DNA of 32,000 bases from Nitrospira sp. bin75 (GCA_002238765.1 MPMZ01000005.1:1-32000), one strand, 5' to 3'; shown: positions 3,374 to 32,000, counted from the first letter of the stretch. Translations and numbers: made by a program. The notes: generated by a model from the sequence alone, not told the origin.

Positions 3374-3530
3374 ACGATAACGTCATTAAAGCATCTATGT
3401 TTCAATTATATTCCTGTGCAGCATAGAGTTGAGCCTTGCTTCCCGACCGCTCATCCATGATGCCGGCGAGGGCCGATGAACACAGGATACAGTAGATTTT
3501 CTTGACGCGTTGTGTATATTATGAGCATAT

Positions 3531-5051: not shown

Positions 5052-5107
5052 GCGCTCTTCCTTTCCTCACTGCGTTCCAACGTGGCCAGATCCGAATGAT
5101 GGGGCGA

Positions 5108-6295: not shown

Positions 6296-6377
6296 GATTC
6301 TCCTCTCGAAGAAAAAGACTGACTCAGCGATCTCTTCTTACCAGAAAACCGATAGAACTCTACAAAACCACTTGAAG

Positions 6378-6502
6378 GCAGGATGTTCAAAAAAGCCGGC
6401 CAGCGCGGCCGCAGCAAGCGAGGAGGCGAGGCGTACGTTTGGAGTACGTTGAGCCTCCGAGCGCTGCGAGAACAAAGCTGGTGGGTTTTTTCAACATCCT
6501 GC
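6378..6502. repeat. long imperfect multi-tier inverted repeat (extended stem-loop) in the frdA-sucC intergenic region
   Basis: Outer arms gcaggatgttcaaaaaagccggccagc (6378-6404) and gctggtgggttttttcaacatcctgc (6477-6502). Middle tier 6411-6427 pairs with 6453-6467. Apical stem cgtac (6432-6436) / gtacg (6444-6448). The element starts 2 nt after the frdA-like stop codon. Confidence 0.7.
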
Positions 6503-6504
6503 TG

Positions 6505-8085: not shown

Positions 8086-8102
8086 GTGTCAGCCGCACTC
8101 CC

Positions 8103-8822: not shown

Positions 8823-8840
8823 GTCCGTTTACCGTACCCC

Positions 8841-8970
8841 GTTGTTCCCCTCACCCTACCCTCTCCCACAAGGGGAGAGGGTTCTCTCATCCCACTTCTT
8901 CTCTCCAGGCGGGAGAGAATTCCCTTCTCACTCCCTCTCCCTGGACGGGAGAGGGTTGGGGTGAGGGTGA
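8841..8970. repeat. GC-rich REP-like element, three tandem hairpin units inside an outer inverted repeat
   Basis: Hairpins ccctctccc/gggagaggg (8859-8881), ttctctcc/ggagagaa (8899-8919) and ccctctccc/gggagaggg (8934-8956). Outer arms are ccctcaccc (8848-8856) and gggtgaggg (8959-8967). The last unit is near-identical to 318-360. Confidence 0.75.
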
Positions 8971-8975
8971 AGAAA

Positions 8976-11225: not shown

Positions 11226-11296
11226 AAGACGTTCTCCGCATGGCTTCCCGGACCCGATCCTTTCCGTAGACCGGGTCAGGGAAACCGTCAATGTTG

Positions 11297-13123: not shown

Positions 13124-13174
13124 CGAACTCTCCTACGTATCAATATCAATATAAAAAGTCTCTCTCGATGGCTG

Positions 13175-15993: not shown

Positions 15994-16047
15994 ACTTAAA
16001 TGTAAGTGGGCTTATGGCATCGAGGTGATGCAGGGAGATCAAGTCCG

Positions 16048-18075
16048 ATGGCCGTGACGAAAGAGAGGTTGACGACCACAACGCTCAGTTTGCCCGAAGA
16101 GCTCATCCTGATGCTCCTCAACGAGGAGAACGGGTACTTTCACCAGGTCCCCGGCTGGGATTTGAACTGCGCTGTCGCCGGCGCAGTACTCGCGGAACTC
16201 TCCCTCCTGTCGCGCATCGACACGGACATGAATTCCCTGTTCCTCGTAGATCAGACCGAAACGGGCGACCCCGCCCTGGACCCCATTCTGAAAGAGATTG
16301 CAAGCGAATCGGTTCAACGGAGCACCCAATTCTGGATTGAACGGCTCGCCCCCCGTGCGGAGTCAGTCATTGATTTGACTCTGGATCGCCTGGTCGGCCA
16401 GAAGATCCTGGAATACCACGACGGCGAATTCTGGACGCTGAATCATACCGGCTGGCAGACGGAACTGTACGGCAACTCCCGGGAAAGCACTGCCGGGCAG
16501 TTCATCAAAACGCGGATCGGCAGGGCTATCTTCATGAACGAGATTCCCGATCCCAGAGACATTATCGTGATTTGCCTCGTCAATACGTGCGACGTCTTTC
16601 GCTTCATCTTCCAGCTCGATGAGGAGTCGGAAGAGCGCATCCAACTCATCTGCAAGATGGACGCGATCGGCCGGTCCATCGCCGATGCAGTCGCCCACAA
16701 CCTCGCCGGCCCCCTGCTTCGACATTCGGCCCTGACCAAGAAGATTCCGGCTGTCTCGCTGAGTAAAGTGTTGTTCAATCCACACGTTCGCAAAGTCAAC
16801 ATTCCGGCCCTCTTTGCGGACCTTGCACACGAATATGGACCGGTGTTTGCGATCCGCCTGCCGTTTGCGAAGCCTATGATCTTCCTGGCCGGACCCCGGA
16901 CAAATCGCTGGGCGCATAAGCGCGGGCGCATGTACCTGAGAGCCAAGGACTATCTTGCCGACTTCGAGAAAGTCTACGGCGCGTGCGGCGTCCTACCTTC
17001 CCTAGACGGCGCCGACCATTTCCGGCTTCGCAAGTCCATGTCAACGGCGTATTCCCGTAGAAGAGTTGAATTGCAACTGGACCAACTCTTTCATCTTGCC
17101 AGAACACATATGGCGCATTGGAAGGTTGGAGACTCGTATACCGCGAGGTCCATGTGCCGGCGAATGATCAACGCACAAATCTCGCCGTTCTACGTCAGCG
17201 TGGATTCTCAGGACATCATCGACGACCTGATGACGTACAAGGAACGGGCGCTCAAAACTCACATCTTGAAGAGCCTGCCCAAATTCATGCTGAACACGCC
17301 GGGCATGAAACGCCGGGCAAAAGCCGTGGACACGTTGCTGGAACGGATCCAGAGTGTCCACACGCCCGCCCAGCGCGCCGGTTGCCCGAGAGACCTTGCG
17401 GATGACTGGCTGAGCCTGCACGCGAGCGATCCGCAGTTCATGCCGGAGTCGAACCTGCGTTTCGCTCTCTCTGCAGCGCTGATTGCCAGCGTGTACCTCG
17501 GCGATGCCTTCAGTTTTGCGCTCTACGCCATGGCGTCACAGCCGGAGATCTACGCCAAGATCCGGAGTGAAGCCGATGCCCTGTTCGACAACGGCGATCC
17601 GAACGGCGAGAACTTCAACCCGTCCGCCATTGACGTCACGCACCGCTTCCTCATGGAATGCCTGCGCATGTACCCGATCGTCCCGATGTCTATTCGAACC
17701 GTGATGAACGCGTGCGTGGTCGAGGACTACGAATTGCCGGTCGGGACAAACATCTACATTGCCCAATCGGCCGCGCATTACATGGACGACGTCTTTCCCG
17801 ACCCGTTCACGTTCGATATCGACCGCTATCTTCCTGCGCGCAATGAGCACCTCAGTCCCGGGTACGCCCCGTACGGGCTGGGTACGCACACGTGTCTCGG
17901 CAACCGGCAGATGGACCTGAAATTGGCCGTCAACGTGCTAATGGTCGCGCATTACTTCACGATCGAGGTAGCCCCCGCGAACTACAAGCTCCGGTTCGAT
18001 CCTCTTCCGTCGATGAAACCGAGCAAGAAGCTGAATTTCCTCATCTCCGAGCGGAGGCGCGAGATTAGCGTCTAG
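16048..18075 (+). CDS. fusion protein: N-terminal GOLPH3/GPP34 (Vps74-like) domain and C-terminal cytochrome P450
   Basis: The N-terminal LSLPEELILMLLNEENGYF...LNCAVAGAVLAELSLLSRID is the GPP34-family signature. The C-terminal ~440 aa is a P450 with ExxR (ECLR), PDPFTFDIDRY, and heme loop YGLGTHTCLG (Cys codon 17893-17895). The start is taken at ATG 16048, preceded by GGGAGA (16034-16039); the ORF-track start is 16006. Confidence 0.85.
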   Translation: MAVTKERLTTTTLSLPEELILMLLNEENGYFHQVPGWDLNCAVAGAVLAELSLLSRIDTDMNSLFLVDQTETGDPALDPILKEIASESVQRSTQFWIERLAPRAESVIDLTLDRLVGQKILEYHDGEFWTLNHTGWQTELYGNSRESTAGQFIKTRIGRAIFMNEIPDPRDIIVICLVNTCDVFRFIFQLDEESEERIQLICKMDAIGRSIADAVAHNLAGPLLRHSALTKKIPAVSLSKVLFNPHVRKVNIPALFADLAHEYGPVFAIRLPFAKPMIFLAGPRTNRWAHKRGRMYLRAKDYLADFEKVYGACGVLPSLDGADHFRLRKSMSTAYSRRRVELQLDQLFHLARTHMAHWKVGDSYTARSMCRRMINAQISPFYVSVDSQDIIDDLMTYKERALKTHILKSLPKFMLNTPGMKRRAKAVDTLLERIQSVHTPAQRAGCPRDLADDWLSLHASDPQFMPESNLRFALSAALIASVYLGDAFSFALYAMASQPEIYAKIRSEADALFDNGDPNGENFNPSAIDVTHRFLMECLRMYPIVPMSIRTVMNACVVEDYELPVGTNIYIAQSAAHYMDDVFPDPFTFDIDRYLPARNEHLSPGYAPYGLGTHTCLGNRQMDLKLAVNVLMVAHYFTIEVAPANYKLRFDPLPSMKPSKKLNFLISERRREISV

Positions 18076-18111: not shown

Positions 18112-19146
18112 CTAAAGGGGTTTGCGAGCCAGGAAACAGTACAACGGCGTGAAGATCCCCGACTTGCCACCCGCGACGTAGGCGTCTGCGGTTCGATCCA
18201 GGAGACGGACGACTTCCGCGGAGCCCTTCGGAAAGAGCCGCAGCACCTCGGCCAGCTTCGATCCCGCGATACAACATCTGCGGCCCCATGGAAGCCTGCA
18301 CACGAGGTTACCCAGTGTCCCGTACCGCGTCTCCATGGGTTGATACCAGGGTGTGGACGGCCCCTCCTTGACGTCGCGGTCCTTCCCCTCGATGACCTGA
18401 AATCCCGCCGCTTCGAGCGCACGATTCACTTCCCCGAACGTCGCGATGTCCTTCAGCGCAATGCCACGCATAAGTTCCCGCTTGATGGCCCGGTGCCGGC
18501 TGTCGTTCGGATCGTACTTGTCCGTCAGACACATGTCCTGACCCCAGAACAGGGCTCCGGGTTTCAATACACGGAATATCTCCGCGAACGCGCGTGGCTT
18601 GTCCGGCGCATGGCACGTTGACTCGATGGCATAACCCCGGTCGAACGTCTCGTCTTTGATGGCGCTCATATCCATGAAGCTGCACGTCTCGTAATCGACC
18701 ATGTGGTCGAGCCCCGCCTCGGCGTTCAACCGTTTCGCATTTGCCAACTGGATGTGATTGATGTTGATCCCGACAACCCGGACACCGGCCTCACGGACGA
18801 CCCGGCGCATCGGGCCGCCGATCCCGCAACCGACATCGACCACCGTCATGCCGGGGTGCAACTCCAGCTTGGCGATCATCAACCGCTGGTGCCGGACTTT
18901 GGAATCCCCCAGACTCTCCTGAGGCGTGAGGGGTGCGAAGTGCAGGGATTCGCCCCAACCGTACACCATGAACTCGCTGCAAAGATCATAGTAGTCTTTT
19001 ACCGTTTGGGTGTGGTCGTATCCGTTCACGCCAGCAGCCTCCGGCGTCGCCCGGTCGATCCAGCCGTCGAAGTGCTCCACGCGACGGGTGACGTCCCCCT
19101 CCCGGTACGCTTCCTTGAGCGCGTGCAGAAGTTTGCCTAGTTGCAT
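18112..19146 (-). CDS. sterol C-24 methyltransferase family protein (ERG6/SMT-like), paralog 1
   Basis: 344-aa ORF with SMT region I variant YYDLCSEFMVYGWGESLHFAP, SAM motif VVDVGCGIGGP, IESTCHAPD, and the Sterol_MT_C-type end GGKSGIFTPLYCFLARKP. RBS GGAAGGAG lies before the ATG. Confidence 0.88.
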   Translation of the reverse strand: MQLGKLLHALKEAYREGDVTRRVEHFDGWIDRATPEAAGVNGYDHTQTVKDYYDLCSEFMVYGWGESLHFAPLTPQESLGDSKVRHQRLMIAKLELHPGMTVVDVGCGIGGPMRRVVREAGVRVVGININHIQLANAKRLNAEAGLDHMVDYETCSFMDMSAIKDETFDRGYAIESTCHAPDKPRAFAEIFRVLKPGALFWGQDMCLTDKYDPNDSRHRAIKRELMRGIALKDIATFGEVNRALEAAGFQVIEGKDRDVKEGPSTPWYQPMETRYGTLGNLVCRLPWGRRCCIAGSKLAEVLRLFPKGSAEVVRLLDRTADAYVAGGKSGIFTPLYCFLARKPL

Positions 19147-19238
19147 GATGAGATTTCTCCTTCCACTTTTGTGTCCACTGCGAAAACCGTGTCAGCAGTG
19201 GAGAGGACGGCGCCACCGGCGGCCTCGTCCATCGGCAC

Positions 19239-19577
19239 TCATTCCGAACCATCCGGATAGAATTGCCTGCAATACCGTCGATACGCGCCAATTTCCCCGT
19301 CCGAGCGACAGAGTAGCGGGCGGGGCCGATGCTGTTTTCGGCCCCAGATGACGACGTCCTGCAACACGTCCCGGCTCTGAGCCGCCATGATGATTTTGTT
19401 CATGAGCCTGGTGCGCAGGCGTAACGGCAGGAAGCGCATGCCCACGATCGGCCGCTTCGGTCTCAGGATTTGACGCACGTGGCTGACCAGCACCAGTTCG
19501 ACGAGTCTGCCGTCGATGGGCGTAGTCAGCACCCACAAACATGTGAAATCAGTCTCATGTCGTCTCCTCTCTGTCAA
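19239..19577 (-). CDS. possible small hypothetical protein between the regulatory module and SMT paralog 1 (start uncertain: TTG 19577 / TTG 19538 / GTG 19532 / ATG further in)
   Basis: It is the only frame in the 19147-19540 gap with protein-like composition and G/C-rich third positions (..PIDGRLVELVLVSHVRQILRPKRPIVGMRFLPLRLRTRLMNKIIMAAQSRDVLQDVVIW..). No family recognised and no clear RBS. Confidence 0.3.
   Translation of the reverse strand: MTERRRHETDFTCLWVLTTPIDGRLVELVLVSHVRQILRPKRPIVGMRFLPLRLRTRLMNKIIMAAQSRDVLQDVVIWGRKQHRPRPLLCRSDGEIGAYRRYCRQFYPDGSE
19526..19558 (-). other. candidate leader uORF, copy 1 (MRLISHVCGC*)
   Basis: The minus strand reads GAGAGGAGAcgacATG AGA CTG ATT TCA CAT GTT TGT GGG TGC TGA. 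The RBS, the ATG and the first six codons are conserved with the copy at 29284-29346. Confidence 0.3.
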
Positions 19578-19703
19578 CTCGTCCGCCTATTGTCTTCCCG
19601 GATCGTGTCCCGAGGCCTGGCGTAAAAGAGTTTTGCCCCACGCGCCTGCCAGCGGGCGGGTAGAAACATTCAGGATGCCACGGCAGATAATTTGAAACGC
19701 ACC

Positions 19704-19732
19704 ACTGTAGCCTACTGAAACCATGGAGTCTA
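19704..19732 (-). promoter_or_regulatory. candidate minus-strand promoter inside module copy 1
   Basis: On the minus strand TAGACT (19727-19732), a 17-nt spacer, then TACAGT (19704-19709). The same geometry occurs in copy 2 (TAGACT-17-TATAAT). Confidence 0.35.
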
Positions 19733-19867
19733 GTATTATGTGTTGCACTCCTATAATTTTATACTTGTCATTCCACAGGTGAAGAGACACCGACGAGGCA
19801 GGGGCTTCCGCCTCGTTGGAACATAAGGCCAAGGAGCTTGGACGTCATGCAGTGCAATAAATGATGC

Positions 19868-19896
19868 TTGCATATCTTGTTTGGCTCAGCTATAAT
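19868..19896 (+). promoter_or_regulatory. candidate plus-strand promoter for SMT paralog 2
   Basis: TTGCAT (19868-19873), a 17-nt spacer, then TATAAT (19891-19896), about 105 nt upstream of the GTG start at 20004. The -10 box is conserved in copy 2. Confidence 0.5.
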
Positions 19897-20003
19897 GTTA
19901 CTTCAGGATTTCTGTCCCGGCAACCCGAGTGTCACGGCCCTGCCCTCCCGAAAACGCGTGACAACGACCAGGACAAATCGTACGAATCCGGAAGAGTAAT
20001 CGA

Positions 20004-21035
20004 GTGAACCCTACGCCCGCCAAACAATCCAATTCTCGTTCCCTCGCGGATCTGGCCCCGGATGAAGTCAAATCCACGGTCGATGGATACACCGCGATCT
20101 ACGACGCCGGCCTGGAGAGCAGGAAAGAGCGTTATCAATCGCTCGTCAATCACTACTACGACTTGGTGACCGATTTTTTCGAATTCGGCTGGGGCCAGTC
20201 TTTTCACTTTGCCCCACGGCAACGAGGCGAGAGCTTCAAGGCGTCCCTGCTCAAGCACGAACAATTTCTCGCCGATCGGTTGTCCCTGAAACCGGGAATG
20301 CAGGTACTTGACGTGGGGTGCGGGGTAGGAGGTCCGATGGGTGCTCTGGCCCGCTATTCCGGGGCCAGCTTTGTCGGTATTAACAATAACGCCTACCAGA
20401 TCAAGCGCGCGAAACTGCACACACGGGATGTCGCATCGTTATGCCGCTTCATCTGCGGCGACTACATGCAGATTCCCGAAGGTGACGACCAGTACGATGC
20501 CGCCTTCGCCATCGAGTCAACGGCCCACGCACCGGACAAAACGGCGGCGTTCCGGGAGATCTTCCGCGTCCTGCGTCCGGGGGCCTGTTTCGCAGGCTAC
20601 GAATGGTGTCTCACCGATGAATACGATCCGGAGAACGCGAAGCACCTGAGGATCAAGAACGATATCATGGTGGGGGGTGGGTTACCGGATATCGCCGTCA
20701 CGTCAAAAATCTGCACCGCATTGCGCACGGCCGGATTCGAACTCCTGGAAGCCTGCGACCGCGCCCCCGAATCGGATCCGGAAATGCCCTGGTACCGCGC
20801 CTTGCAGGGTCGAGACCTCAGCATGGGGAGTATTCCGCGTACCCCTGTCGGCCGCGCCTTGACCAATTTGGTGTTACGGGTTGGGGAGAAATTGCGGCTG
20901 GTTCCGGAGGGCGCCCGCGAGGTCAGCACGCTGTTGAATGCAGGGGCGGACGCGCTGGTCGAAGGCGGCAAATCCGGAATTTTTACTCCGATGTTTTTTT
21001 TCCTGGCACGCAAACCCCGTCGCTCGGAAGACTGA
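20004..21035 (+). CDS. sterol C-24 methyltransferase family protein (ERG6/SMT-like), paralog 2
   Basis: 343-aa ORF with canonical SMT region I YYDLVTDFFEFGWGQSFHFAP, SAM motif VLDVGCGVGGP, IESTAHAPD, and C-terminal GGKSGIFTPMFFFLARKP. It uses a GTG start preceded by GGAAGAG. Confidence 0.9.
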   Translation: MNPTPAKQSNSRSLADLAPDEVKSTVDGYTAIYDAGLESRKERYQSLVNHYYDLVTDFFEFGWGQSFHFAPRQRGESFKASLLKHEQFLADRLSLKPGMQVLDVGCGVGGPMGALARYSGASFVGINNNAYQIKRAKLHTRDVASLCRFICGDYMQIPEGDDQYDAAFAIESTAHAPDKTAAFREIFRVLRPGACFAGYEWCLTDEYDPENAKHLRIKNDIMVGGGLPDIAVTSKICTALRTAGFELLEACDRAPESDPEMPWYRALQGRDLSMGSIPRTPVGRALTNLVLRVGEKLRLVPEGAREVSTLLNAGADALVEGGKSGIFTPMFFFLARKPRRSED

Positions 21036-21124: not shown

Positions 21125-24100
21125 TCAAGACAAAGAATAGGTGGGAACCGCTTCAGGCAAGGGCGCCGTCGCGTCGGCAGCAGAGACGGCGGAGGCGGTC
21201 AGTTCCAGCCGGGCCCGACGCCGCTGCTCGTAAAGACCGAGCGCGTGCAGGGGAAAATACTGCCGATACAGGACGTAGTCCAACAGCGCCGTACGGAAAA
21301 AGATCCCGGCCATGTCTTGTTTGGGCCATGTCCCATCCGCTTCCTGGGTGTCGAGCAAAAACCGGGCGCCCCGCGAAATCGCGGTCCAGTTCGAATCCCC
21401 CGCCTCGAGGAGCGCAAGCATGGCCCACGAAGTTTGGATGACCTGACTTTCCTCATGCGCGACGTAGCGGCCGGTCAGGCACCCGCTGTGGTGCTCACCC
21501 CATCCCCCGTCTTCCCGCTGGCGGTCCAGTAACCACCGGCAGGCCAGACGTAGGGCCGGATCACCGGGACGGGCCCCGGCGGCCAGCAGCCCCCTGACCC
21601 CGAAGAAGGTGCCGTAGATGAACTGAACGCCCCAGACGCCGCGCCACGACCCATCGCTGGCCTGGTTCCGGCGAAGCCAGGTGTCAGCCCGTGAGACGGC
21701 GCTCATCATCGCCCCATCCGTGATTTGCGGGAAGTGCTCCTGACAGGCGGCGAGCGCCGCGAGACAAGACGCGGTGCACTCGACGTAGGAATGTTCGGTC
21801 GTCGACTCGCCGAACATCTCGGCCGGATTCAGCCACTCAAGAGGAACCACGGAGCGTTGCGCCTCGTAGCTCCCAAAACCGCCATCGCGGTTCTGACCGC
21901 GCAACATGAACCGAACCGCTTCGTCGAGCATTGTCGTGCTCGTGGCCTCGCAGTCCGCGGCGATAATCCCAAGCACCGCTTCCGCGGTGCAGTCGGTCAC
22001 CGGCCAGCCGTGCCATCCCCCTGGAAAACACCAGCCGCCCTTGGGGTCGCTCCGATAGGCCTCGCGAAATCCTTCGAAGCTGGTACCGATTTGTTCCCGG
22101 CGCAGGAAATCGGCTCCGCGTTGGAGGGCGGTTCGAACCCCGTCGAACTCGGGCACCGTCGCCAGCGCCTGCAGGGCGAATCCGGTATCCCACGAGGAGC
22201 TTCTCGCTCCGGTCACTCGCGCTCCACACTCCTCGTCTTCCCAGATCCAGCCGTCCAGCTTCGCGAACGCCTGCCGGCAGTCTGAATCGTTTGGATCACG
22301 CAGCCATAACGCAAGAATGTTCAGGAAGCCGCTGACCGGAGAGATGCTCGTGTGGCTGGTGGTTTGCAGCTCCCATTTGATGTGCCGAATGATCGATTCC
22401 ATACATCGGGCGCGCAGACGTTTGCCGTGGAACCGCTCGACTACCCGCGCCAACCCATATCCGGCACGGAGCCACACGCTGGGTCGCGCGTACAGGTCGG
22501 CGCTTCGCAAGCGATTGCGGCCCGCGGAAAAATTCACGTTGGCAAACCCCTGGGGGAACAACTCCTCTCGTAACGACGCGATCGTGGGCGTGACGGGTGC
22601 TTGAAACCGATGCGGGTAAATCGCCGCCATCGCCATATAGATGAGCCGGGTATGGCAGTACCAATTCGAGGGGTGTAACACGATCCAGCGCGGCAAGATC
22701 CACAACTCCGGGAGAATGGCGTTGACCCCGCGCCAGTCGTAGAGATGGAGAAGCGCCAGCCAGAACTTCCCCCAACTCGGGATATTGAGAACCCCTTCTG
22801 CTTGCATGAATCGACGGGCCGGCTCGATTAACGGATCATCCCGTTCGATACCGAGTAATCTCGCCGCGACGTACACCAGGGTGGTGACAAACAGGTTGGG
22901 TGGTGAGTGCTCGTGTAAACCCCATACGCCTTCCCGGAGACGGGTCCGTTCGAAGGAGCGTAGCACACGCCGGCACCGGCCGGGATCGAGCGGCCGCTCC
23001 ATCATGTGGAGCAATAACACATATTGCGCGGTCAGCATGGGACACCACACCATCTCACCCTCCCAAGCGCCATCCTCACCCTGGAGACGTAACAGACGCG
23101 CGCACGCGCTCTTCAAGGCCGGTTCGGCATAGGGTGACGCAACTTCCCTCGGGCGGATGGACTGGGGGTTACTCACGCTCGACGGCATGGAGACCAATAG
23201 CGCACGAGCCAAGGTGTCCCGAATTCGCTCGTCTTGTGCTCCGCCCTCGCCTCTCGCCTTGCGCAGATGTATGACGCCACGCAGGAGCCACTGGAGACGA
23301 ACGGCGAGCGCCTGAACGACGTCGCAGGCCCTCCGCCAAGCGAACTGGTCGCAGGATCGCGGAATCGCCCCGGCAACCGCCCGAAACACCATCGCGCAAC
23401 CCGCGAAACTCATATGGGATACCGATATGTCTTCACAGGCGAGCAAACGCATGGTCTCGTTGCGGAACGCGGAACTTGCCCGCCAACGCCGGTAGATCGC
23501 GTGTCTGACTGCCACCACCTCGGCCCGGTGATCGGCAAAGGTCTCATAGAGCTCCATGGCAAGGAGCTCGGGAGTGTGGGTCGCTTGGAAACGCTTTGTG
23601 GTGAAGTCGTGAAAGTCCTTGCCTTCGGCCAGCGTCAGCGCATCGCCGAAACCCAGGGGCATTCCCACCGCCGTCAGGGGATGGTAGTGCCCGGCCGCAT
23701 CGCCGATCAGCACTCGATGGGGGCTCCCGTACGTGACGCGCGGACTCAGTTCATTGGCCGCGGCCTGGAATTGCCCCGCCCGTAGCGCTTCGATAAACGC
23801 AGGCCTGAGTGTTTCCGGCAACACACCGGCATACGCGTCCGACAGAAAGCCAATCCGGTCCCAGGGTGTCCAGCCGTCCGATGGGACATCGACGATGACC
23901 CGGACGCAATGATCTCCCAAACGGTACATGAGAATTGGACCCGGTCCACCACACAACACGTGCCCATAACCCTCCAGCGGTAAACGCACCCCTCTCAATG
24001 TGACCCCCACCATCCGCGAGCAGGTCTTCGGTTTGATCGATAAGCCCAAGGATCGACGCACGATTGAGGCCCGGCCGTCGGCGCCGACAATCCGCGCGGC

Positions 24101-24550
24101 GGATAGGGATTTCTCTGTACCGTTGCAGGAAAACGTGACGCGCGCGTCTTCCACTGAACGGACCCACGCGTGGGGAATAAAGTCGACACCCGGTTCGCTC
24201 TCGATCGCTTCACGCAGATTCGAGACGATCGCCGCATGCTCGCACGCCAAACCGTGAAGTCCCTCCGGATAAGGGAGCACGATCGGCTCCGAGCCGTCTT
24301 CCGGGAACACGACAAATCCCTTACCGGTGGTGCTGAGGGGCTGCGTATCGAGCCTGATGCCGAAATCGCGTAACATCCGCACGGCAAGCGGATGCAGCCA
24401 TTCGCCCGCCATTCGTTTGGAAGCATTGGGATTGGCTTCGAGCAGAGCCACCCTGGCGCCGTTCCGCGCGTGAGCGAGCGCGCACAAGCTGCCTGCCGGA
24501 CCCGCGCCGACGATGGCAACGTCGTAGCGCCGAACAGTGGCGTCACTCAT
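21125..24550 (-). CDS. single-ORF fusion of squalene monooxygenase (epoxidase, N-terminal ~470 aa) and oxidosqualene cyclase (C-terminal ~650 aa)
   Basis: N-terminal YDVAIVGAGPAGS (FAD) and GDAAGHYHPLTAVGMPLGFGDA (squalene-epoxidase motif). The C-terminal part has QW-type repeats (GEDGAWEGE, RDGGFG, SDGSWRG, EDGGWGEH, ADGTWP) and the epoxide-protonating VTDCTAE motif (21980-22015). No in-frame stop lies between the domains. I place the start at ATG 24548-24550, which overlaps the cyp51 stop as ATGA; the ORF-track start 24787 adds 79 non-homologous residues. Confidence 0.88.
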   Translation of the reverse strand: MSDATVRRYDVAIVGAGPAGSLCALAHARNGARVALLEANPNASKRMAGEWLHPLAVRMLRDFGIRLDTQPLSTTGKGFVVFPEDGSEPIVLPYPEGLHGLACEHAAIVSNLREAIESEPGVDFIPHAWVRSVEDARVTFSCNGTEKSLSAARIVGADGRASIVRRSLGLSIKPKTCSRMVGVTLRGVRLPLEGYGHVLCGGPGPILMYRLGDHCVRVIVDVPSDGWTPWDRIGFLSDAYAGVLPETLRPAFIEALRAGQFQAAANELSPRVTYGSPHRVLIGDAAGHYHPLTAVGMPLGFGDALTLAEGKDFHDFTTKRFQATHTPELLAMELYETFADHRAEVVAVRHAIYRRWRASSAFRNETMRLLACEDISVSHMSFAGCAMVFRAVAGAIPRSCDQFAWRRACDVVQALAVRLQWLLRGVIHLRKARGEGGAQDERIRDTLARALLVSMPSSVSNPQSIRPREVASPYAEPALKSACARLLRLQGEDGAWEGEMVWCPMLTAQYVLLLHMMERPLDPGRCRRVLRSFERTRLREGVWGLHEHSPPNLFVTTLVYVAARLLGIERDDPLIEPARRFMQAEGVLNIPSWGKFWLALLHLYDWRGVNAILPELWILPRWIVLHPSNWYCHTRLIYMAMAAIYPHRFQAPVTPTIASLREELFPQGFANVNFSAGRNRLRSADLYARPSVWLRAGYGLARVVERFHGKRLRARCMESIIRHIKWELQTTSHTSISPVSGFLNILALWLRDPNDSDCRQAFAKLDGWIWEDEECGARVTGARSSSWDTGFALQALATVPEFDGVRTALQRGADFLRREQIGTSFEGFREAYRSDPKGGWCFPGGWHGWPVTDCTAEAVLGIIAADCEATSTTMLDEAVRFMLRGQNRDGGFGSYEAQRSVVPLEWLNPAEMFGESTTEHSYVECTASCLAALAACQEHFPQITDGAMMSAVSRADTWLRRNQASDGSWRGVWGVQFIYGTFFGVRGLLAAGARPGDPALRLACRWLLDRQREDGGWGEHHSGCLTGRYVAHEESQVIQTSWAMLALLEAGDSNWTAISRGARFLLDTQEADGTWPKQDMAGIFFRTALLDYVLYRQYFPLHALGLYEQRRRARLELTASAVSAADATAPLPEAVPTYSLS

Positions 24551-25956
24551 TGGACAATGCTCGCTTGCGAGCGGCGGCGATAGCGGACCCGGCACGGTGC
24601 CTTGGGACCCGTCACCCAACTCCCGTAATTCGGGGCGGGAAACGCCGTGTCGAGATGAAAATCGAAGCGATCGAGCAGCACGGTCCAGATCGCTTTCAGT
24701 TGCAGGTAAGCAAAAAGTTTCCCCATACACACGTGTTTGCCGCCGCCGAAACCGATCAGGGCGTACTGATGTTGCTTGTCCTCGCAAGCGGGAGGGTCAA
24801 AACGCTCCGGAGAGAACCGTTCCGGGTCGGCAAACACGTGGGGCAGCCGGTGAGAGACTGCAGGGGACACCATGGCCAGGGTGCCGGCAGGCACGAGATG
24901 GTCTCCGTAACGCACGGGTTTCAGCACCTTGCGGATCAGCATGATCAACGGCGGGTGCATCCGCTCACACTCACGGACGGCGTGTTCCAGCGCCACTTGT
25001 CGTTTGAGACTAGCAAGGGTCATGGCTCCTTCCTCACGGTAAACGTCTTGCATCTCGTCTCTGACCCGCGCCAGGTATGATGGTGCCCTCACGAGTTCCA
25101 GACCGGTCCAGGTTGCGAGCACCGCGCTGGTGTGTTGGCCCGCGAACAAGACCGTCAGCAAGATCCCAGAAATTTCGTCGTCGCTCAAAGCACGGCCATC
25201 CTTGTACCGGGCGTGCATGAGTGCCTGCATGAAATCATCGGGACAGGCCCCGGAAAACCGGCGTTCCGCCATGATCCGGCTAAAGAGTTCGACCACGTTT
25301 CGCCGGGCCCGGTCGCGGCTTCGATGCGCCGCGGTCGGAAGTCTGGGGAGAAAAAATCCCAAGGTGTTGATGCCTTTTTGCAGATCGTGATACGCCTCGG
25401 CAAAACCCGAGTCCACCTGATCCCGGACTTCCTGTCCAATGAGGCAACGACTGGCGATCTTGACGGTGAGTTCGTTCAACGCGACCGGCAGATCGGCTTC
25501 ACCCTCCTCGCCGAGGGCGTCGGCGAACCAGCTCGTCTCCTCGAACATGATGCGCGCAAACCTGCTCATCGCGGCCTCGCGGAGCGCCGGAAACAAGAAT
25601 CCCAGTTGCTCGTCCATGAGTTCGGGGGGGGCATCGTACGCCACGCCGCGTCCGAAGATGGGTACCGTGAATTGATAGACGGCTTTGGCGTTCAGTTGAT
25701 CCTCGGGCGCCCTGAAGTAAACTTCGTGGGCTTCGGGTCCGGTGAAGAGAACAAACTCTCGGGGACCGAGCCGGAACCGGAAGAGATCGCCCTGCTCGCG
25801 CCAGCCGCGGCTCAACATCGAGACCGGATCCTTGAGAAAATCCGGCAGATGACCGATCAACGGCCATCCACCCCCAAGCTCGGGAACGGCTTTTGCGACG
25901 CGCGGCGAGAACTGCGCCGAACGCAGGGTTGCCACACTGTGAGACCGATCTTCCAC
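24547..25956 (-). CDS. cyp51: sterol 14-alpha-demethylase, cytochrome P450 family 51
   Basis: CYP51 signatures: B'-helix YQFTVPIFGRGVAYDAP, I-helix LFAGQHTSAV, and heme loop FGGGKHVCMG. The preferred start is GTG 25954-25956, with GGAGAG 8 nt upstream overlapping the preceding gene's TGA. The alternative ATG at 26022 would overlap the upstream gene by 55 nt. Confidence 0.9.
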   Translation of the reverse strand: MEDRSHSVATLRSAQFSPRVAKAVPELGGGWPLIGHLPDFLKDPVSMLSRGWREQGDLFRFRLGPREFVLFTGPEAHEVYFRAPEDQLNAKAVYQFTVPIFGRGVAYDAPPELMDEQLGFLFPALREAAMSRFARIMFEETSWFADALGEEGEADLPVALNELTVKIASRCLIGQEVRDQVDSGFAEAYHDLQKGINTLGFFLPRLPTAAHRSRDRARRNVVELFSRIMAERRFSGACPDDFMQALMHARYKDGRALSDDEISGILLTVLFAGQHTSAVLATWTGLELVRAPSYLARVRDEMQDVYREEGAMTLASLKRQVALEHAVRECERMHPPLIMLIRKVLKPVRYGDHLVPAGTLAMVSPAVSHRLPHVFADPERFSPERFDPPACEDKQHQYALIGFGGGKHVCMGKLFAYLQLKAIWTVLLDRFDFHLDTAFPAPNYGSWVTGPKAPCRVRYRRRSQASIVQ

Positions 25957-25967
25957 CCCTGCTCTCC

Positions 25968-27062
25968 TCAATAGACAAACGGCAGCATCGAAAAGCGCAC
26001 TCGCTGCGTGTAGCGTTCCCACAATTCGCCATACTTGGCTCGGCAGCGGTGCTCATCACGTCTCGAGCGATGCCACAACAAACCCGCCAGCCACACGGGT
26101 AACAGGTAGGGTACCCAGGATGCGAATCCGGTGGTCAGGGTGAACGCGAGGTAGATGCAGATTTCACCGGTATAGTTGAGATGCCGTCCAATGCCCCAAA
26201 AGCCGGAGACCAGCAGGCGCCCGTCCATGGACCGGGCGGGTTGTCCCCAAATCATGATGTCGGGGTCACGCTTGAAGCGGTGCTTTTGCTGGTTGGCGCC
26301 GCGGAAGACCCAGAAGCCGAACAACAGGACGATCGCAGCCGCGGCAATGGGAGACAGCGGTGCCGATGCGTGGATCAGCCACCAGCCGGGGAGGCAGTAG
26401 AAAAACGGCACCAGCACGTAGTCTCCCCAAATCAACATCCATCCGAAGCGCTCACTGACGATGTCCCAAGTGTGGATCATGCCGTATTCGAACTGGAAGT
26501 AATTGAGCACGTACAGGAAGGTGAAGATCTGATAGAGCGCCATGGCCAAGGTCAGCCCGCCGTAGGTTTCGTACTGCGCGACGGCAAACGAGGCGTTGAG
26601 CAGCGCCAGGCCGATGAGGGAAGGGCGGTAACTGAAAAGCTTCAAATCCACCCCGAACCAGGTGGGATTGAGTTCCACGCCAAAGAAGAAACCTTTCCAC
26701 GGTCCCGGTGGTGCATCCCCCAACTCGGCTCTTCGCCAATACAGCCAGCCGGACAAGGCGAATGCGAATACGTTGGTCACCACGAACAACGCGGCGAAGT
26801 GGGTATGCAGCACGGAAAGAGAAAACCACCCGAAGACCTCGGCGAGACAGGCCACGATCACGGTCATCAGGAACAAGGCAAGGCCGTTGAGCTTGTAGGT
26901 GTGCGTTTTTCCGCCGATCTCCGGCCCCGTCACCCGCCGTCCGGACAGGAACGCCGAACCCAGAAACAACACGCCGACAAACACCGACACCATGACCGTC
27001 GCATCGAGCACCGTGCCGGCCGACAGCGTGGACAACGGGAAGTGCAGCTCAGACGCCGGCAT
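25968..27062 (-). CDS. ERG4/ERG24-family sterol reductase (most likely C-14 reductase; C-24(28) or C-7 reductase not excluded)
   Basis: 364-aa polytopic membrane ORF with family motifs GANQQKHRFK, GFWGIGRHLNYTGE and HRSRRDEHRCRAKYGELWERY. It lies immediately upstream of cyp51. Confidence 0.85.
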   Translation of the reverse strand: MPASELHFPLSTLSAGTVLDATVMVSVFVGVLFLGSAFLSGRRVTGPEIGGKTHTYKLNGLALFLMTVIVACLAEVFGWFSLSVLHTHFAALFVVTNVFAFALSGWLYWRRAELGDAPPGPWKGFFFGVELNPTWFGVDLKLFSYRPSLIGLALLNASFAVAQYETYGGLTLAMALYQIFTFLYVLNYFQFEYGMIHTWDIVSERFGWMLIWGDYVLVPFFYCLPGWWLIHASAPLSPIAAAAIVLLFGFWVFRGANQQKHRFKRDPDIMIWGQPARSMDGRLLVSGFWGIGRHLNYTGEICIYLAFTLTTGFASWVPYLLPVWLAGLLWHRSRRDEHRCRAKYGELWERYTQRVRFSMLPFVY

Positions 27063-28176
27063 CGCCGTTCTCCGTCCCCCGCACCATGTACTCCCGCCAC
27101 TTGCGCACGGTCACGTTTTGAAAAGCCCGCACCGCCGGATTGTACTCGATGGGGGGAGCGTCCCAATGTTGCTCGTAACCCTGCTGCTCCGCTTCGACCG
27201 CAACGCCGTCCTGGGCGAGTAAAGGGCCGATGAGTACACGGTTCGAGATCTTCAACACCGCGGTCATGGCGAAACGGGGAATACGAACAGGCAGCAAGGG
27301 CACCTTCAGCGACTTGAAGTAAAACAGGAAAAACGCCCGGGTAGTACGCTCATCGATCGGCAGGACGAAAAGCCAGTGTTTGATCGCGTCATCGGTGTTC
27401 GACCACTGGTAGGGGTATTGATAGCACAGTTCCATATGAGTGGTATCGAGCCGGTGGTGATCGACAAACAGTCCGGAGATGCGCCCGCGCCCGACCCGCG
27501 TATCGTAGGCCACGTGCACGTCGTCGCCGACGGTCTCGCAACGGGTGAGAGTGGCGTCTTCTTCGAAGGGACGGTATTGACGGTGCAGGTGGGCGTGGGT
27601 GAAGTCGCTCACGTTATCGATCACCATCGAGTGGTGGGCCGACCAGGTGAAAACCAGCGGCTCGCAGGCCCACCGCTCGGGTCCCTCGAGTTCCGGGATG
27701 TCCGGGATCCGGCGCAACTCCGCCCGCTCCGGTTCCCCGGGGAACAACCAGACCAGACCGTATCGGACCTTCACGGGATAGGTTCTGAGCGGGAGCTTCG
27801 GGAGACCCCGTCCGGAGAGGTCGTGGGGGATCGCGACACAGCGTCCGTTTCCATCATACTGCCAGCCATGGTAGGCGCACACGAGCCGGCAGCCTTGCAC
27901 CTCGCCCAGGGAGAGTTTGAGCTGGCGATGCGCACAGCGATTCTCGATAGCGTGAAACGAGCCGTCCTTTCCCCGGAACAGCGCAATGGAACGTTTCCAG
28001 AAAATGACCTCGACCACCGTCCCCGGTTTGACGCGGTGCACTTCCTCAACCGCGTACCAATAATCCGGGTCCATCCCCGCGGCACGGGCTTGCTGGCGCA
28101 AGCTGCCGGCTTCCTCGAAGCCGGGTGGCGCACCCGGCGCCGGAATCACGTTGAGCCTTCTTTTCGCGTTATCCAT
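27049..28176 (-). CDS. sdmA: Rieske [2Fe-2S] non-heme-iron oxygenase, SdmA-like (bacterial sterol C-4 methyl oxidase candidate)
   Basis: Rieske motif CAHRQLKLS..(x)..CAYHGW and a mononuclear-iron region DNVSDFTHAHLH. It is paired with an SDR gene as in the Methylococcus capsulatus sdmAB arrangement. The symbol is assigned by context and family, not by a search. Confidence 0.7.
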   Translation of the reverse strand: MDNAKRRLNVIPAPGAPPGFEEAGSLRQQARAAGMDPDYWYAVEEVHRVKPGTVVEVIFWKRSIALFRGKDGSFHAIENRCAHRQLKLSLGEVQGCRLVCAYHGWQYDGNGRCVAIPHDLSGRGLPKLPLRTYPVKVRYGLVWLFPGEPERAELRRIPDIPELEGPERWACEPLVFTWSAHHSMVIDNVSDFTHAHLHRQYRPFEEDATLTRCETVGDDVHVAYDTRVGRGRISGLFVDHHRLDTTHMELCYQYPYQWSNTDDAIKHWLFVLPIDERTTRAFFLFYFKSLKVPLLPVRIPRFAMTAVLKISNRVLIGPLLAQDGVAVEAEQQGYEQHWDAPPIEYNPAVRAFQNVTVRKWREYMVRGTENGDAGV

Positions 28177-29287
28177 AGGCCTGGCTCGGAGAAAAATTGT
28201 CCACGGGTGCCGCGGCGGTCACGCACGGACGTTTCGCGAGCGGATTCGTGATCGCGTTGCGATGGTAGTGAAAGGCGTAAGCCTCACGAACCGCAGCACG
28301 GATACTGGTTGGCTGATAGCCGAGTTCCCGTTTCGCTTTGCTAGTGTCGGCGTGACGGCGCTTTCGTAACAGGCGGATGGCGCCGGGGGTGAACCGCTGG
28401 GGAAAGCTCGGGTGAAACCGGCTCAGATAAAAGCTCGCCACTTCCGAAAAGCCGAGCATCAGGCGGGTCGGAATCCGCCGGCACGGTCGCGGGAGTCCCG
28501 AGACTTCCTCGAACAGATCCAAGATCTCGGAGATGGTTTTGTACTCGCTGCTGAAGATGTACTTTTCGCCCGATCGTCCTTTGTGCATACACAACAGGTG
28601 TCCTTCGACAATGTCCCTCGCCGCGACAAACTCGAACCCCCCGTCGACGTAGGCGCGGATCTTGCGGTTGGTGTAGTCGCACAAGGTCCGTCCCAATCGC
28701 GAGGGGAAAAAATCACCGCCCCCGATCACCGCACAACACGTGGCGACCACGACGTCCTGTCCCTTCGCCGCGGCCTTCCAGCACTCGTGCTCGACGAGCG
28801 CTTTGCTGCGCTCGTAGGGCATCGTGCGCTCCATGGGATAGAACTGCATCGTCTCGTCGCTGGGAGAGGACGGATTATCCAGATCGTACCCGACCGCACT
28901 GAAAGAGCCCGTCACCACCACCCGGCCGGCCCCCGCCTCCCGCGCAGCCTGCAGCACGTGGCGGGTACCGAGCACGTTGCACTCGAACACTTCCCGCCGA
29001 TGGGCGCGGTTGCCTTCGATGGTCGAGACCTTGGCCGCGACGTGATAGACGCCTTGACAGCCTTCGAGCGCGCGCCTGGTGGCATTCAAGTCTCGAATGT
29101 CACCGAACGAGCGTTCAACATCAAGGCCTTCCAACGCCTCGTTGTTGTCCTCGTGTCTCAGCAACACCCGGACCCGGACGCCATCGTCGAGCAGCCGGCG
29201 CACAAGATTGGCGCCCACGTGCCCGGCCGATCCGGTAACGAAAACAGGCGGCGGAGAACCGGCGAATGCGCCCGATCCTGAGGTCAT
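28169..29287 (-). CDS. sdmB: NAD(P)-dependent SDR (3-beta-HSD / epimerase family), SdmB-like (C-4 decarboxylase/ketoreductase candidate)
   Basis: Rossmann VFVTGSAGHVGANLVRRLL and catalytic YERSK (YxxxK). It overlaps the sdmA-like start by 8 nt and is the first gene of the five-gene unit. RBS GGAAGGA lies before the ATG. Confidence 0.7.
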   Translation of the reverse strand: MTSGSGAFAGSPPPVFVTGSAGHVGANLVRRLLDDGVRVRVLLRHEDNNEALEGLDVERSFGDIRDLNATRRALEGCQGVYHVAAKVSTIEGNRAHRREVFECNVLGTRHVLQAAREAGAGRVVVTGSFSAVGYDLDNPSSPSDETMQFYPMERTMPYERSKALVEHECWKAAAKGQDVVVATCCAVIGGGDFFPSRLGRTLCDYTNRKIRAYVDGGFEFVAARDIVEGHLLCMHKGRSGEKYIFSSEYKTISEILDLFEEVSGLPRPCRRIPTRLMLGFSEVASFYLSRFHPSFPQRFTPGAIRLLRKRRHADTSKAKRELGYQPTSIRAAVREAYAFHYHRNAITNPLAKRPCVTAAAPVDNFSPSQAYG

Positions 29288-29842: not shown

Positions 29843-32000
29843 ATGAGCTCCGCCACTCTGGACCGCTACACCGCGTTCATGTTGCGCCGCCGATGGCTGG
29901 TCCTCGCGTCGGCCGTGGCAGTCATGCTGGCTCTGACGGCCGGCGTCCAATTCATCAACATCTCCAACGACTGGCGTGACATGTTGGACGAGGACAATCC
30001 TCAACTCGTGGCATTCGACGCCTTGGAGGATACCTACACGGCCACCAATGCGGCGCTGGTCGCGGTCGCGCCCAAGGGCGGGTCGGTCTTCACCCGCGAG
30101 GCGCTCGGCGCCGTCGAGGAGTTGACCGAGGCCGCGTGGCGCGTGCCCTCGTCCACCCGGGTCGACTCCTTGACCAACTATAGCCACACCGAGTCGGTCG
30201 AGGACGATTTGAACGTCGAACGGCTCGTGGACGACGCGGGATCGCTGAGCGATGACGACCTCGCGCGGATCAAGGAAATTGCGTTAAACGAGCCCAGTGT
30301 CGCGGGCCGTCTCGTTTCCCACGACGGGCGCGTTGCCGGACTGGTCATCAGTTTCACCTTGCCCGAGCATTCGGACGCCGCGGAGATCCGGATTCTCAAC
30401 TATGTCCGCGGCCTCCTGGAAGAGGCCAGGGCGGCGCATCCGGACATCGCCTATCACGTCACCGGCAATGTCTTCGTGAACCGAGTCCTGACGAAGGCGG
30501 CCCAGGACGATATGGGAATTCTCGCGCCCGTCGCGTTCCTCGTCATCGTGTCCGTCGCCGCCATTCTGCTGCGCTCCCTGTTCGGCACGCTGTCCCTCGT
30601 CGCGGTGCTCCTTTTCGTCGTCGGCTCGACCATGGGCGTCATCGGCTGGACCGGTTTGGTGCTCAACGCCGCCAACTCCGGCGTTCCCCTCATCATCATG
30701 ACGCTCGCCATCGCGCACTCGGTCCACGTCGTCGAGAAGATCGTGTCCGGCATGAGCCGGGGTCTGGATAGGGACACGGCGGTCGTCGAATCGTTGCGCG
30801 ACAATGCCTGGCCGGTCTTCCTGACGACGGCCACGACGATGATCGGGTTCCTCAGCATGAACGCCTCGGACTCTCCGCCCTTCCGGGTCCTCGGTAATCT
30901 TGTGGCGTTCGGGATGTTCTGCGCCTACGTGTATTCCATGACGCTTCTTCCGGCGCTGCTGTTGGTCCTGCCGTTGCGCGCGAGTCCCGTACGCGCCGGG
31001 CGTTCCAATTTCTTCGATCGCCTCGGCGCCTTCGTCGTCGCGCGCCGCGGGCTCCTGCTCTGGTCCATGGCCGCCGTCGCGATTACCCTGATAGCCGGCG
31101 TGCCCCGCGTCGAGCTGACGGACAACTGGACGACGCATTTGGATGAACGTTACGAGTTTCGGCGCGATACGGACTTCGTCATCGAGAACCTGTCCGGCGT
31201 AGAGACGCTGGAGTACAGCCTGAGAGCCGGACGCGAAGGCGGCATCACCGATCCCGGCTATCTGCGCAAGGCCGACGCTTTGGCCGAATGGTACCGGGCC
31301 CAGCCGGAAGTGGCTCACGTCCGGGCGTTTTCAGACATCATGAAGCGCCTCAACAAGAACATGCACGGCGACGACCAGGCCTTTTACCGGCTGCCCGAAA
31401 ACCCCGAGCTTGCCGCGCAGTACCTGCTGCTCTACGAACTTTCGGTTCCCTTCGGCATGGACCTCAACAACCGAATGGACATCGGCAAAACCTCGACGCG
31501 GATGACCGTCACGCTCCACAGACTGAAGTCCGAGGAGATGCGTGAGCTCGAAGTGCGCGGGCAGGAGTGGCTCCGCGCCAACGCGCCCGACCTCGCGTCC
31601 GAGGCATCGGGGTACAGCCTCATCTTCGCCCATCTGGCCATACGGAACACCATGAGCATGTTGTGGGGCACGATCACGGGTATGGTCCTCATTTCGCTGC
31701 TCCTGATCGCGATTTTCAGAAGCGTACGCCTCGGCCTCATCAGCCTCGTGCCCAACCTCATCCCCTCGTTTATGGCTTTCGGCGTTTGGGGCTATCTGTA
31801 CAGCGAGGTGGGGCCCGCCGGCTCGCTCGTGACCGCGATCGCCTTCGGCACCGTCGTCGATGACACGATTCACCTCATGAGCAAGTATCTGAAGGCGCGT
31901 CGCGAAGGACTTTCCGCGTCCGAGGCGGTATGCTACGCTTTTCGTTCGGTCGGTCAGGCGTTGTTCACCACAACCATGATGCTGGTGCTGGGCTTCCTGG
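29843..32000 (+). CDS. RND-superfamily MMPL/HpnN-type transporter (BstA-like sterol transporter candidate), C-terminus beyond window
   Basis: Own translation from ATG 29843 gives MSSATLDRYTAFMLRRRWLVLASAVAVMLALTAG..., then a periplasmic loop, a TM bundle (..LIIMTLAIAHSVHVV.., ..TTATTMIGFLSMN..), a second loop, and a second bundle with FGTVVDDTIHLMSKY. The frame is open to 32000. It is absent from the ORF track because it is open-ended. Confidence 0.85.
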   Translation, partial: MSSATLDRYTAFMLRRRWLVLASAVAVMLALTAGVQFINISNDWRDMLDEDNPQLVAFDALEDTYTATNAALVAVAPKGGSVFTREALGAVEELTEAAWRVPSSTRVDSLTNYSHTESVEDDLNVERLVDDAGSLSDDDLARIKEIALNEPSVAGRLVSHDGRVAGLVISFTLPEHSDAAEIRILNYVRGLLEEARAAHPDIAYHVTGNVFVNRVLTKAAQDDMGILAPVAFLVIVSVAAILLRSLFGTLSLVAVLLFVVGSTMGVIGWTGLVLNAANSGVPLIIMTLAIAHSVHVVEKIVSGMSRGLDRDTAVVESLRDNAWPVFLTTATTMIGFLSMNASDSPPFRVLGNLVAFGMFCAYVYSMTLLPALLLVLPLRASPVRAGRSNFFDRLGAFVVARRGLLLWSMAAVAITLIAGVPRVELTDNWTTHLDERYEFRRDTDFVIENLSGVETLEYSLRAGREGGITDPGYLRKADALAEWYRAQPEVAHVRAFSDIMKRLNKNMHGDDQAFYRLPENPELAAQYLLLYELSVPFGMDLNNRMDIGKTSTRMTVTLHRLKSEEMRELEVRGQEWLRANAPDLASEASGYSLIFAHLAIRNTMSMLWGTITGMVLISLLLIAIFRSVRLGLISLVPNLIPSFMAFGVWGYLYSEVGPAGSLVTAIAFGTVVDDTIHLMSKYLKARREGLSASEAVCYAFRSVGQALFTTTMMLVLGFL

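Follow-up and report, generated by a model that had tools for sequence, protein, structure and literature searches.

The 32,000-nucleotide (nt) stretch of Nitrospira sp. bin75 DNA analyzed here (GCA_002238765.1, MPMZ01000005.1:1-32000; referred to below as the window) carries on its minus strand a single long gene in which a squalene epoxidase (SE, or squalene monooxygenase, SMO) and an oxidosqualene cyclase (OSC) are encoded in one frame. This gene is very probably a natural fusion of the bacterial squalene monooxygenase and OSC, ending a horizontally mobile sterol operon. The coding sequence (CDS) and the parts of its product were located as follows, numbered from the ATG at 24550.

21125..24550, minus strand: fused squalene epoxidase-oxidosqualene cyclase CDS of 1141 amino acids (aa) plus stop, supported by translation of the open reading frame (ORF), Pfam, identical gene calls and full-length homologs
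23186..24550, minus strand: SE half, residues 1-455, delimited by matches to 6c6n and 6c6p and by alignment with the stand-alone SE of an unfused sister operon, L082
24491-24508, minus strand: flavin adenine dinucleotide (FAD) Rossmann motif, residues 15-20
23651-23704, minus strand: GD motif, residues 283-300
23162..23185, minus strand: fusion junction, residues 456-463 (PSSVSNPQ), placed by the L082 comparison, a dip in the predicted local distance difference test score (pLDDT) and low conservation
21125..23161, minus strand: OSC half, residues 464-1141 plus stop, supported by the match to human 1w6k, TIGR03463 and Foldseek
21980-21994, minus strand: catalytic DCTAE, residues 853-857

The longest minus-strand ORF at this position runs from 24787 to 21125 and would encode 1220 aa from a TTG codon. 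The ATG at 24550 (MSDATVRRYDVAIVGAGPAGS), which yields the 1141-aa protein, is the more sensible start. It shares the sequence ATGA with the TGA that terminates CYP51 upstream, and the equivalent start was also picked by an independent gene caller in other assemblies. An ATGA or GTGA overlap with CYP51 is kept in most related loci, and we conclude that the ATG is the real start of the fusion gene. With the numbering of the 1220-aa frame, Pfam placed FAD_binding_3 and SE at 88-451, SQHop_cyclase_N at 559-852 and SQHop_cyclase_C at 863-1187, all far above their gathering scores, such that the epoxidase domains occupy the N-terminal 40% and both cyclase domains the C-terminal 60% of the protein. 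An initial annotation, made from the sequence alone, had described one uninterrupted frame with an epoxidase and a full cyclase, and the single stop-free 1141-aa CDS with both Pfam domain sets bears this out. The motifs it named were likewise recovered, with GDAAGHYHPLTAVGMPLG at residues 283-300, VTDCTAE at residues 851-857, and approximately five QW-like motifs in the OSC half, two of them strict. A triple fusion that would also include CYP51 was considered for loci L032, L066, and L071, whose frames stay open for approximately 460-530 aa further upstream, and was rejected, as Pfam found no P450 domain there; in GC-rich DNA such extensions stay open by chance.

The conservation of the frame was followed in the 80 best matching loci from contigs representing one genome per species in more than 10 phyla, and in the 120 best matches within a collection of 5.8 billion proteins. 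The 120 proteins were 72-100% identical to the query and 1107-1180 aa long, and all had both domain sets. Each of the 80 loci matched the query in one piece, from about residue 1 to about residue 1130, and upon translation 79 could be read through the full gene in one frame without a stop, the exception being a gene cut by the end of its contig. Many of these loci sit on Mb-scale complete chromosomes. The identical 1141-aa protein was called on three independent metagenome contigs, and the matches listed contained more than 240 distinct clusters of fused proteins at 90% identity. The initial annotation had allowed that fused homologs might already exist in databases, and homologs of the same architecture are indeed abundant.

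The position of the junction was obtained by comparison with the closest unfused arrangement found.

L082:6001-9440 (ENA ERZ24894576, a 430-kb contig): unfused SE (477 aa) and OSC (666 aa) pair, 5 nt apart

The gene order in L082 is SdmB-SdmA-CYP51-SE-OSC, with the ERG24 gene absent. Its SE (P0138) is the closest stand-alone epoxidase found, with 59% identity to the SE half, and corresponds one to one to residues 1-455 of the fusion. Its OSC is 76% identical to the OSC half and aligns from its own residue 2 to residue 464 of the fusion onward. The junction is therefore residues 456-463, which take the place of what separates the two enzymes in the unfused layout, namely the last 22 aa of SE, its stop codon, 5 nt of spacer, and the start codon of OSC. 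Separate and adjacent SMO and OSC genes are found in the characterised bacteria Methylococcus capsulatus and Gemmata obscuriglobus, as the initial annotation had held for characterised sterol producers, and the L082 pair illustrates that arrangement within an operon related to the one in the window. The L082 pair thus provides a natural control for the fusion.

The initial annotation had also proposed an Arg/Ser/Pro-rich linker of about 60 aa. A mild enrichment is present, as residues 421-481 contain 13.1% Arg, 11.5% Ser, and 8.2% Pro versus 9.6, 6.1, and 5.3% in the whole protein, but the length did not hold. Most of this segment is homologous either to the C-terminal helices of stand-alone SE (to residue 455) or to the N-terminus of stand-alone OSC (from about residue 464), and the junction is about 8 residues. 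An AlphaFold2 model computed with 149 fused homologs had a mean pLDDT of 88.9 and a predicted template modeling score (pTM) of 0.89, and the only internal segment with a pLDDT under 50 was residues 455-464. When the model was searched with Foldseek, none of the solved structures spanned both halves. The junction is the least conserved part of the protein, yet it has zero indels within the clade of sponge-associated fusions (the sponge clade), where a fixed 74 residues separate two conserved anchors flanking the junction; in myxobacterial fusions 47-107 residues lie between those anchors. Codon analysis against close relatives gave omega values of 0.18-0.39 for the SE core and 0.15-0.21 for the OSC half, with values up to approximately 1.2 on 23 codons at the junction. 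Both halves are under purifying selection, and the values obtained are in line with that of 0.17 reported by Kelly et al. 2022 (PMC9531527) for the 'LSS' of sponge-symbiont steroid clusters.

The SE half has the GxGxxG FAD-binding feature expected of squalene monooxygenases (EC 1.14.14.17) as VGAGPAG at residues 14-20, with PF01494 scoring 68 bits against a cut-off of 22, and the SE domain PF08491 scores 78.7 bits against a gathering score of 20.1. In the Protein Data Bank (PDB), the best sequence match was human SQLE at an E value of 5e-26 (6c6n), and the family ranked second had 8e-06. Foldseek superimposed the SE half of the model on human SQLE 6c6p with a template modeling (TM) score of 0.80 over about 445 of 450 residues, C-terminal helices included; three of these helices (residues 377-452) correspond to the membrane-associated helical domain of the human enzyme.

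The OSC half, which carries the cyclase domains PF13249 and PF13243 of the EC 5.4.99.x enzymes, aligned with human lanosterol synthase (LSS, 1w6k) over human residues 84-722 with an E value of 5.5e-130, and the OSC half of the model matched human OSC in Foldseek with a TM score of 0.85 and a root mean square deviation of 2.2 Å. In the alignment with human LSS, the equivalents of D455, C456, and C533 are kept in VTDCTAE (851-857) and YVECT (922-926), whose residues are nearly invariant across the 149 fused proteins, and the equivalents of H232 and Y503, which serve in deprotonation, are kept in WYCHTR and GSYE. The best NCBIfam model was TIGR03463 (osq_cycl) with 720.5 bits, versus 264.6 bits for the hopene cyclase model, and the broader TIGR01787 was passed with 502.8 against its cut-off of 322.7.

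Examination of the surrounding DNA revealed the genes of a sterol pathway.

24547..26022, minus strand: CYP51-type P450 (sterol 14-demethylase), Pfam p450; the gene caller placed its start at about 25956
25968..27062, minus strand: ERG4/ERG24-family sterol C-14 reductase, Pfam PF01222 with 237 bits, found in the operon across phyla
27049..28176, minus strand: SdmA-like Rieske oxygenase (bacterial C-4 demethylation), Pfam Rieske and VanA_C
28169..29287, minus strand: SdmB-like NAD-dependent reductase/decarboxylase (bacterial C-4 demethylation), Pfam Epimerase/3Beta_HSD
20004..21035, plus strand: sterol methyltransferase (SMT, ERG6-like), convergent with the fusion gene, Pfam Sterol_MT_C and Methyltransf_11, beside the operon in most loci
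18112..19146, minus strand: second SMT paralog, Pfam Sterol_MT_C and Methyltransf_11

The fusion is the last gene of the co-directional, overlapping series sdmB-sdmA-erg24-cyp51-SE/OSC, and the sterol operon is translationally coupled, the fusion to CYP51. The best NCBIfam models for the SdmA-like and SdmB-like proteins were NF052579 (4beta-methylsterol monooxygenase, 410 bits) and NF052578 (SdmB, 316 bits), each below its cut-off of 600. The order seen in the window recurred exactly in 38 of the 80 loci, most of the others having small variations, and the operon proteins are approximately 70-90% identical across phyla. The approximately 850 bp between the two SMT genes (19147-20003) hold no convincing ORF.

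Other explanations of the single frame were weighed against that of a natural bifunctional fusion. A stop or frameshift missed between two adjacent genes during sequencing or assembly could leave one long frame, and in the related L082 operon the two genes lie so close, at 5 nt, that a single indel might make them look fused in one assembly. We regard the chance of this as negligible. The frame is conserved in 79 of the 80 species genomes, Mb-scale complete chromosomes among them, the identical protein occurs on three independent contigs, more than 240 fused clusters at 90% identity stand among the matches listed, and no indel interrupts the alignment of the junction codons within the sponge clade; an assembly or frameshift artefact is thus effectively refuted. 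Alternatively, the gene might be fused while the cell ends with two enzymes, through proteolysis at the junction or an internal translation start before the cyclase. The junction has features that would suit such an outcome, as residues 455-464 are the only disordered internal stretch of the model, constraint there is relaxed (the 23 codons with omega up to about 1.2), and an in-frame ATG, Met455, coincides with the last SE-homologous residue. Met455, however, is not preceded by a Shine-Dalgarno-like sequence (a 2/6 match), and 16 of the 80 homologs have Ile or Leu instead; it was rejected as a start for a free cyclase. Met500 was rejected as well; the Shine-Dalgarno-like GGGAGGG before it is made of invariant W-E-G codons and lies inside the cyclase fold. 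Had separation been selected, one would not expect the frame and the exact junction length to be held in 79 of 80 species with no stop regained, and the truly split arrangement that exists, L082, looks different. We therefore consider a two-enzyme outcome very unlikely.

A further alternative grants the single polypeptide and questions its function, with one half a degenerate passenger, or with a product other than a sterol, formed from another epoxidase substrate or as an arborane-type or other triterpenol. Bacterial OSCs making arborinols were reportedly described by Banta et al. in 2017. Several observations weigh against a functional sterol-forming fusion, and most of them would suit this alternative. 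The Q168/Y195 pair of human SQLE is needed for its activity, and the corresponding positions here hold H53 (24392-24394) and F79 (24314-24316). The TIGR03463 score of 720.5 is below the trusted cut-off of 851 for that model. The triad at human LSS positions 381/449/453 is A782/H847/V851, near-invariant in the fused family and neither of the canonical patterns, which are T/C,Q/V for lanosterol and Y/H/I for cycloartenol. In addition, no electron donor for the epoxidase was identified within the window, and no biochemical or proteomic proof of an intact 125-kDa bifunctional polypeptide was found in open-access papers and bioRxiv. The Y195F change is documented to cost human SQLE more than 90% of its activity (PMC6327030). 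Set against these points are the purifying selection on both halves, the complete set of OSC catalytic residues, and the occurrence of the His/Phe pair in nearly all bacterial SE representatives examined, including stand-alone enzymes in sterol operons. Moreover, CYP51, the C-14 reductase, SdmA/B, and the SMTs all need a 4,4,14-trimethyl protosterol substrate, and SMTs from sponge-symbiont clusters alkylate sterols in vitro (PMC10070321). We accordingly allow only a slim chance for a passenger half or a non-sterol product, and favor a fusion in which both enzymes function in sterol synthesis.

Nearly all of the bacterial SE representatives examined had the His/Phe pair, and this applied to stand-alone enzymes and to those joined to OSC or to other domains alike. 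The pair therefore appears to be a signature of the bacterial lineage rather than a lesion of the fusion gene, and its use as a mark of an inactive epoxidase was rejected. The Q168/Y195 pair defines the eukaryotic enzyme, not the bacterial SE family. The substitution would imply a different active-site arrangement in the bacterial SE lineage, and bacterial enzymes with the His/Phe pair are probably insensitive to tertiary-amine inhibitors of SQLE. None of the His/Phe representatives examined could be linked to an experimentally validated producer. The mixed A/H/V triad of the cyclase gave no assignment to lanosterol or cycloartenol, and product prediction from the triad was abandoned.

The fusion probably arose when adjacent genes, which in the unfused sister operon are a few nt apart, were joined in frame. 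In the pathway we propose, the N-terminal domain would use O2 and reduced FAD to epoxidize squalene at the membrane surface, and the resulting 2,3-oxidosqualene would reach the tethered cyclase via a shared membrane patch or a fixed inter-domain arrangement. The aspartate of DCTAE would then protonate the epoxide to give a protosterol, probably of the lanosterol or parkeol type, which CYP51, ERG24, SdmA/B, and the SMTs would demethylate and alkylate on the side chain. That both activities operate in one polypeptide in vivo is inferred from the sequence, as would be the identity of the product and any kinetic benefit of the tether.

Substrate channelling between the domains is plausible, given the monotopic membrane association of both parent enzymes and the pTM of the model, which hints at a defined mutual orientation. 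The initial annotation had based its argument for channelling on a labile intermediate. 2,3-Oxidosqualene is a stable, isolable intermediate and not particularly labile, and any benefit is therefore more likely to lie in co-localisation, a 1:1 stoichiometry, avoidance of the second epoxidation that gives dioxidosqualene, or easier co-transfer; we consider these rationales as good as channelling. A bolder model would have the two monotopic domains packed in a fixed orientation so as to pass 2,3-oxidosqualene without equilibration with the membrane pool, as a 'squalene-to-protosterol synthase' whose autonomy would be one of the reasons for the recent spread of the operon across more than 10 phyla of sponge-dwelling bacteria. 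This model, suggested by the predicted structure, we hold to be unlikely.

Public genomes that carry the fusion number in the hundreds and come from sponge-associated bacteria and from myxobacteria. The labels of the loci include Nitrospirales, Binatia, Thermodesulfobacteriota, Acidimicrobiales, Gamma- and Alphaproteobacteria, Bryobacterales, Vicinamibacterales, Opitutales, Rhodothermales, and Longimicrobiales, and nearly all of the 80 genomes look sponge-associated, most of them bearing names that point to sponges. The synonymous divergence (dS) of the fusion gene between the window (Nitrospirales) and the Binatia and Gammaproteobacteria copies (L005 and L011) is only approximately 0.3-0.45, far from saturation. 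Such a low dS across phyla indicates recent inter-phylum transfer, and the whole operon moves horizontally among apparent sponge symbionts of more than 10 phyla. A search for the vehicle of transfer revealed no tRNA in the window and no integrase or transposase among its annotated ORFs. No close fused homolog was found on catalogued plasmids, the best hits being separate genes on a Streptomyces megaplasmid and a stand-alone OSC on a Planktothrix plasmid. The latter is an OSC-like gene, 55% identical to the cyclase half, at 53966-55990 of the 62-kb Planktothrix agardhii plasmid NZ_LR882940.1.

When a distant fused protein served as the query, at least 120 more fused proteins were added, including those of Polyangium aurulentum (12.3-Mb genome) and Polyangium sp. 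15x6. The fused genes of these cultured Polyangium species are annotated 'FAD-dependent oxidoreductase' or 'lanosterol synthase'. When proteins were clustered at 50% identity, the top 150 representatives included those of nine or more distinct fused clusters. In a neighbor-joining tree of the OSC half, computed without support values, nearly all fused proteins from sponge bacteria and myxobacteria grouped together with a few stand-alone OSCs inside, whereas in the tree of the SE half, also without support values, fused and stand-alone SEs were interleaved. A single origin of the fusion, which the OSC tree would suggest and the SE tree does not, was therefore not upheld. The searches also returned another clade (P0188, P0206, P0211, P0216, P0221, P0240, and about 10 more) of approximately 1030-1200 aa, with an N-terminal SE, a C-terminal squalene/phytoene synthase, and a middle region of about 300 aa having weak matches to cyclase or alpha-alpha-toroid models. 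From its domain matches this clade appears to be an epoxidase fused to the upstream enzyme and to a half-cyclase-like module.

Additional ORFs lie near the sterol genes of the window. One, on the plus strand at 16006-18075, encodes 689 aa with a GPP34/GOLPH3-like domain (PF05719, residues 29-230) and a P450 domain (about residues 437-674). Homologs of this GPP34-P450 protein with 66-81% identity adjoin the sterol operon in loci of Nitrospirales, Binatia, Opitutales, and Gammaproteobacteria, and it may be an uncharacterised sterol-modifying accessory protein. Another ORF of 344 aa, on the minus strand at 30284-31318, had no Pfam or NCBIfam match; its relatives, at 64-85% identity, stand beside SdmB or the fusion in several Nitrospirales loci, which makes it a possible further, uncharacterised gene of the cluster.

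Further from the operon, the minus strand at 4179-14371 holds a block of the reductive tricarboxylic acid (rTCA) type, with succinyl-CoA synthetase-like subunits at 4179-6295, the flavoprotein and Fe-S subunit of a fumarate reductase/succinate dehydrogenase at 6505-8822, aconitase at 8976-11399, and ATP-citrate lyase subunits at 11297-14371. AclB shows 94-95% identity to its counterparts in two operon-bearing Nitrospirales loci. The neighboring ATP-citrate lyase and rTCA genes, together with the AclB identity, identify the host as a member of Nitrospirales, and the block fits an autotroph of that order. Positions 2001-4000 form a low-GC island (45-48% versus approximately 58% in the flanks) that contains a gene with a NERD (nuclease-related) domain at 2306-3373 on the minus strand and may be foreign DNA.

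Bacterial sterol synthesis bears on the reading of sterane biomarkers, as from sponges and other eukaryotes or from bacteria, and on the origin of eukaryotic sterol synthesis. Sponge symbionts are enriched in the sterol operon and exchange it among themselves, and the fused gene is its entry point. Since pipelines label the fusion only as 'lanosterol synthase' or only as 'FAD-dependent monooxygenase', surveys can wrongly infer that SE is absent. A natural one-polypeptide enzyme for the conversion of squalene to protosterol, along with the split pair of L082, would also allow a test of the gain in flux from tethering monotopic membrane enzymes.

The architecture has entered the literature before. 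Brown et al. 2023 (Nat Commun, PMC10070321) mentioned 'fused SMO/OSC homologs' in sterol clusters of sponge symbionts and trimmed off the epoxidase part for phylogeny. Their Supplementary Data 1 gives one gene ID for ERG1 as well as ERG7 on a scaffold from Aplysina aerophoba, and the same double match occurs in a metagenome-assembled genome labeled 'Nitrospira sp., coral reef', with ERG11, ERG24, and two SMTs as neighbors. Beyond this passing mention, no characterised natural SE-OSC fusion was found in open-access papers and bioRxiv. Kelly et al. 2022 (Microbiome, PMC9531527) described in Ircinia symbionts a 'cluster of steroid genes' with the order ERG24-CYP51-LSS, a DFR-like and a hypothetical gene before it, and an SMT on the opposite strand. 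They reported it from 10 phyla, including Nitrospiria and Binatia, with purifying selection and horizontal gene transfer. Their LSS alignment of 3765 nt has the length of the fused gene, and the epoxidase is never mentioned. The fusion is thus genuine but already recorded, and belongs to a widespread family.

Compared with characterised enzymes, the SE half has in common with human SQLE (6C6N/6C6P) the fold and the FAD and GD motifs, but the human enzyme is a separate protein of the endoplasmic reticulum (ER) with an N-terminal regulatory domain that is absent from the fusion. Similarly, the OSC half has the fold and the catalytic Asp/Cys/His/Tyr set of human lanosterol synthase (1W6K), which is a separate ER protein whose first 83 or so residues have no counterpart in the fusion. 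The L082 operon has the same enzymes in the same SE-then-OSC order and shares operon neighbors with the fusion; it differs in making two polypeptides, with a stop and the 5-nt spacer between the genes and a 22-aa SE tail where the fusion has 8 residues. The Myxococcota fusions (Polyangium aurulentum, Polyangium sp. 15x6, and metagenome-assembled genomes of Polyangiaceae and Polyangiales) have the same domain order and junction anchors at 1104-1191 aa, but are 44-53% identical to the window protein, belong to free-living soil bacteria, and have a linker of variable length rather than the fixed 74 residues. The sponge-symbiont group of Brown et al. and Kelly et al. has the same architecture, operon order, and taxa, including Nitrospira/Nitrospiria, at 72-91% identity, once the DFR-like gene of Kelly et al. 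is equated with SdmB, their hypothetical gene with SdmA, and LSS/ERG7 with the fused gene. The fusion itself was analyzed in neither paper. With at least 68% identity to the sponge clade, the fixed junction length, and the operon context, the window gene shows no difference in kind from that group and is a member of it.

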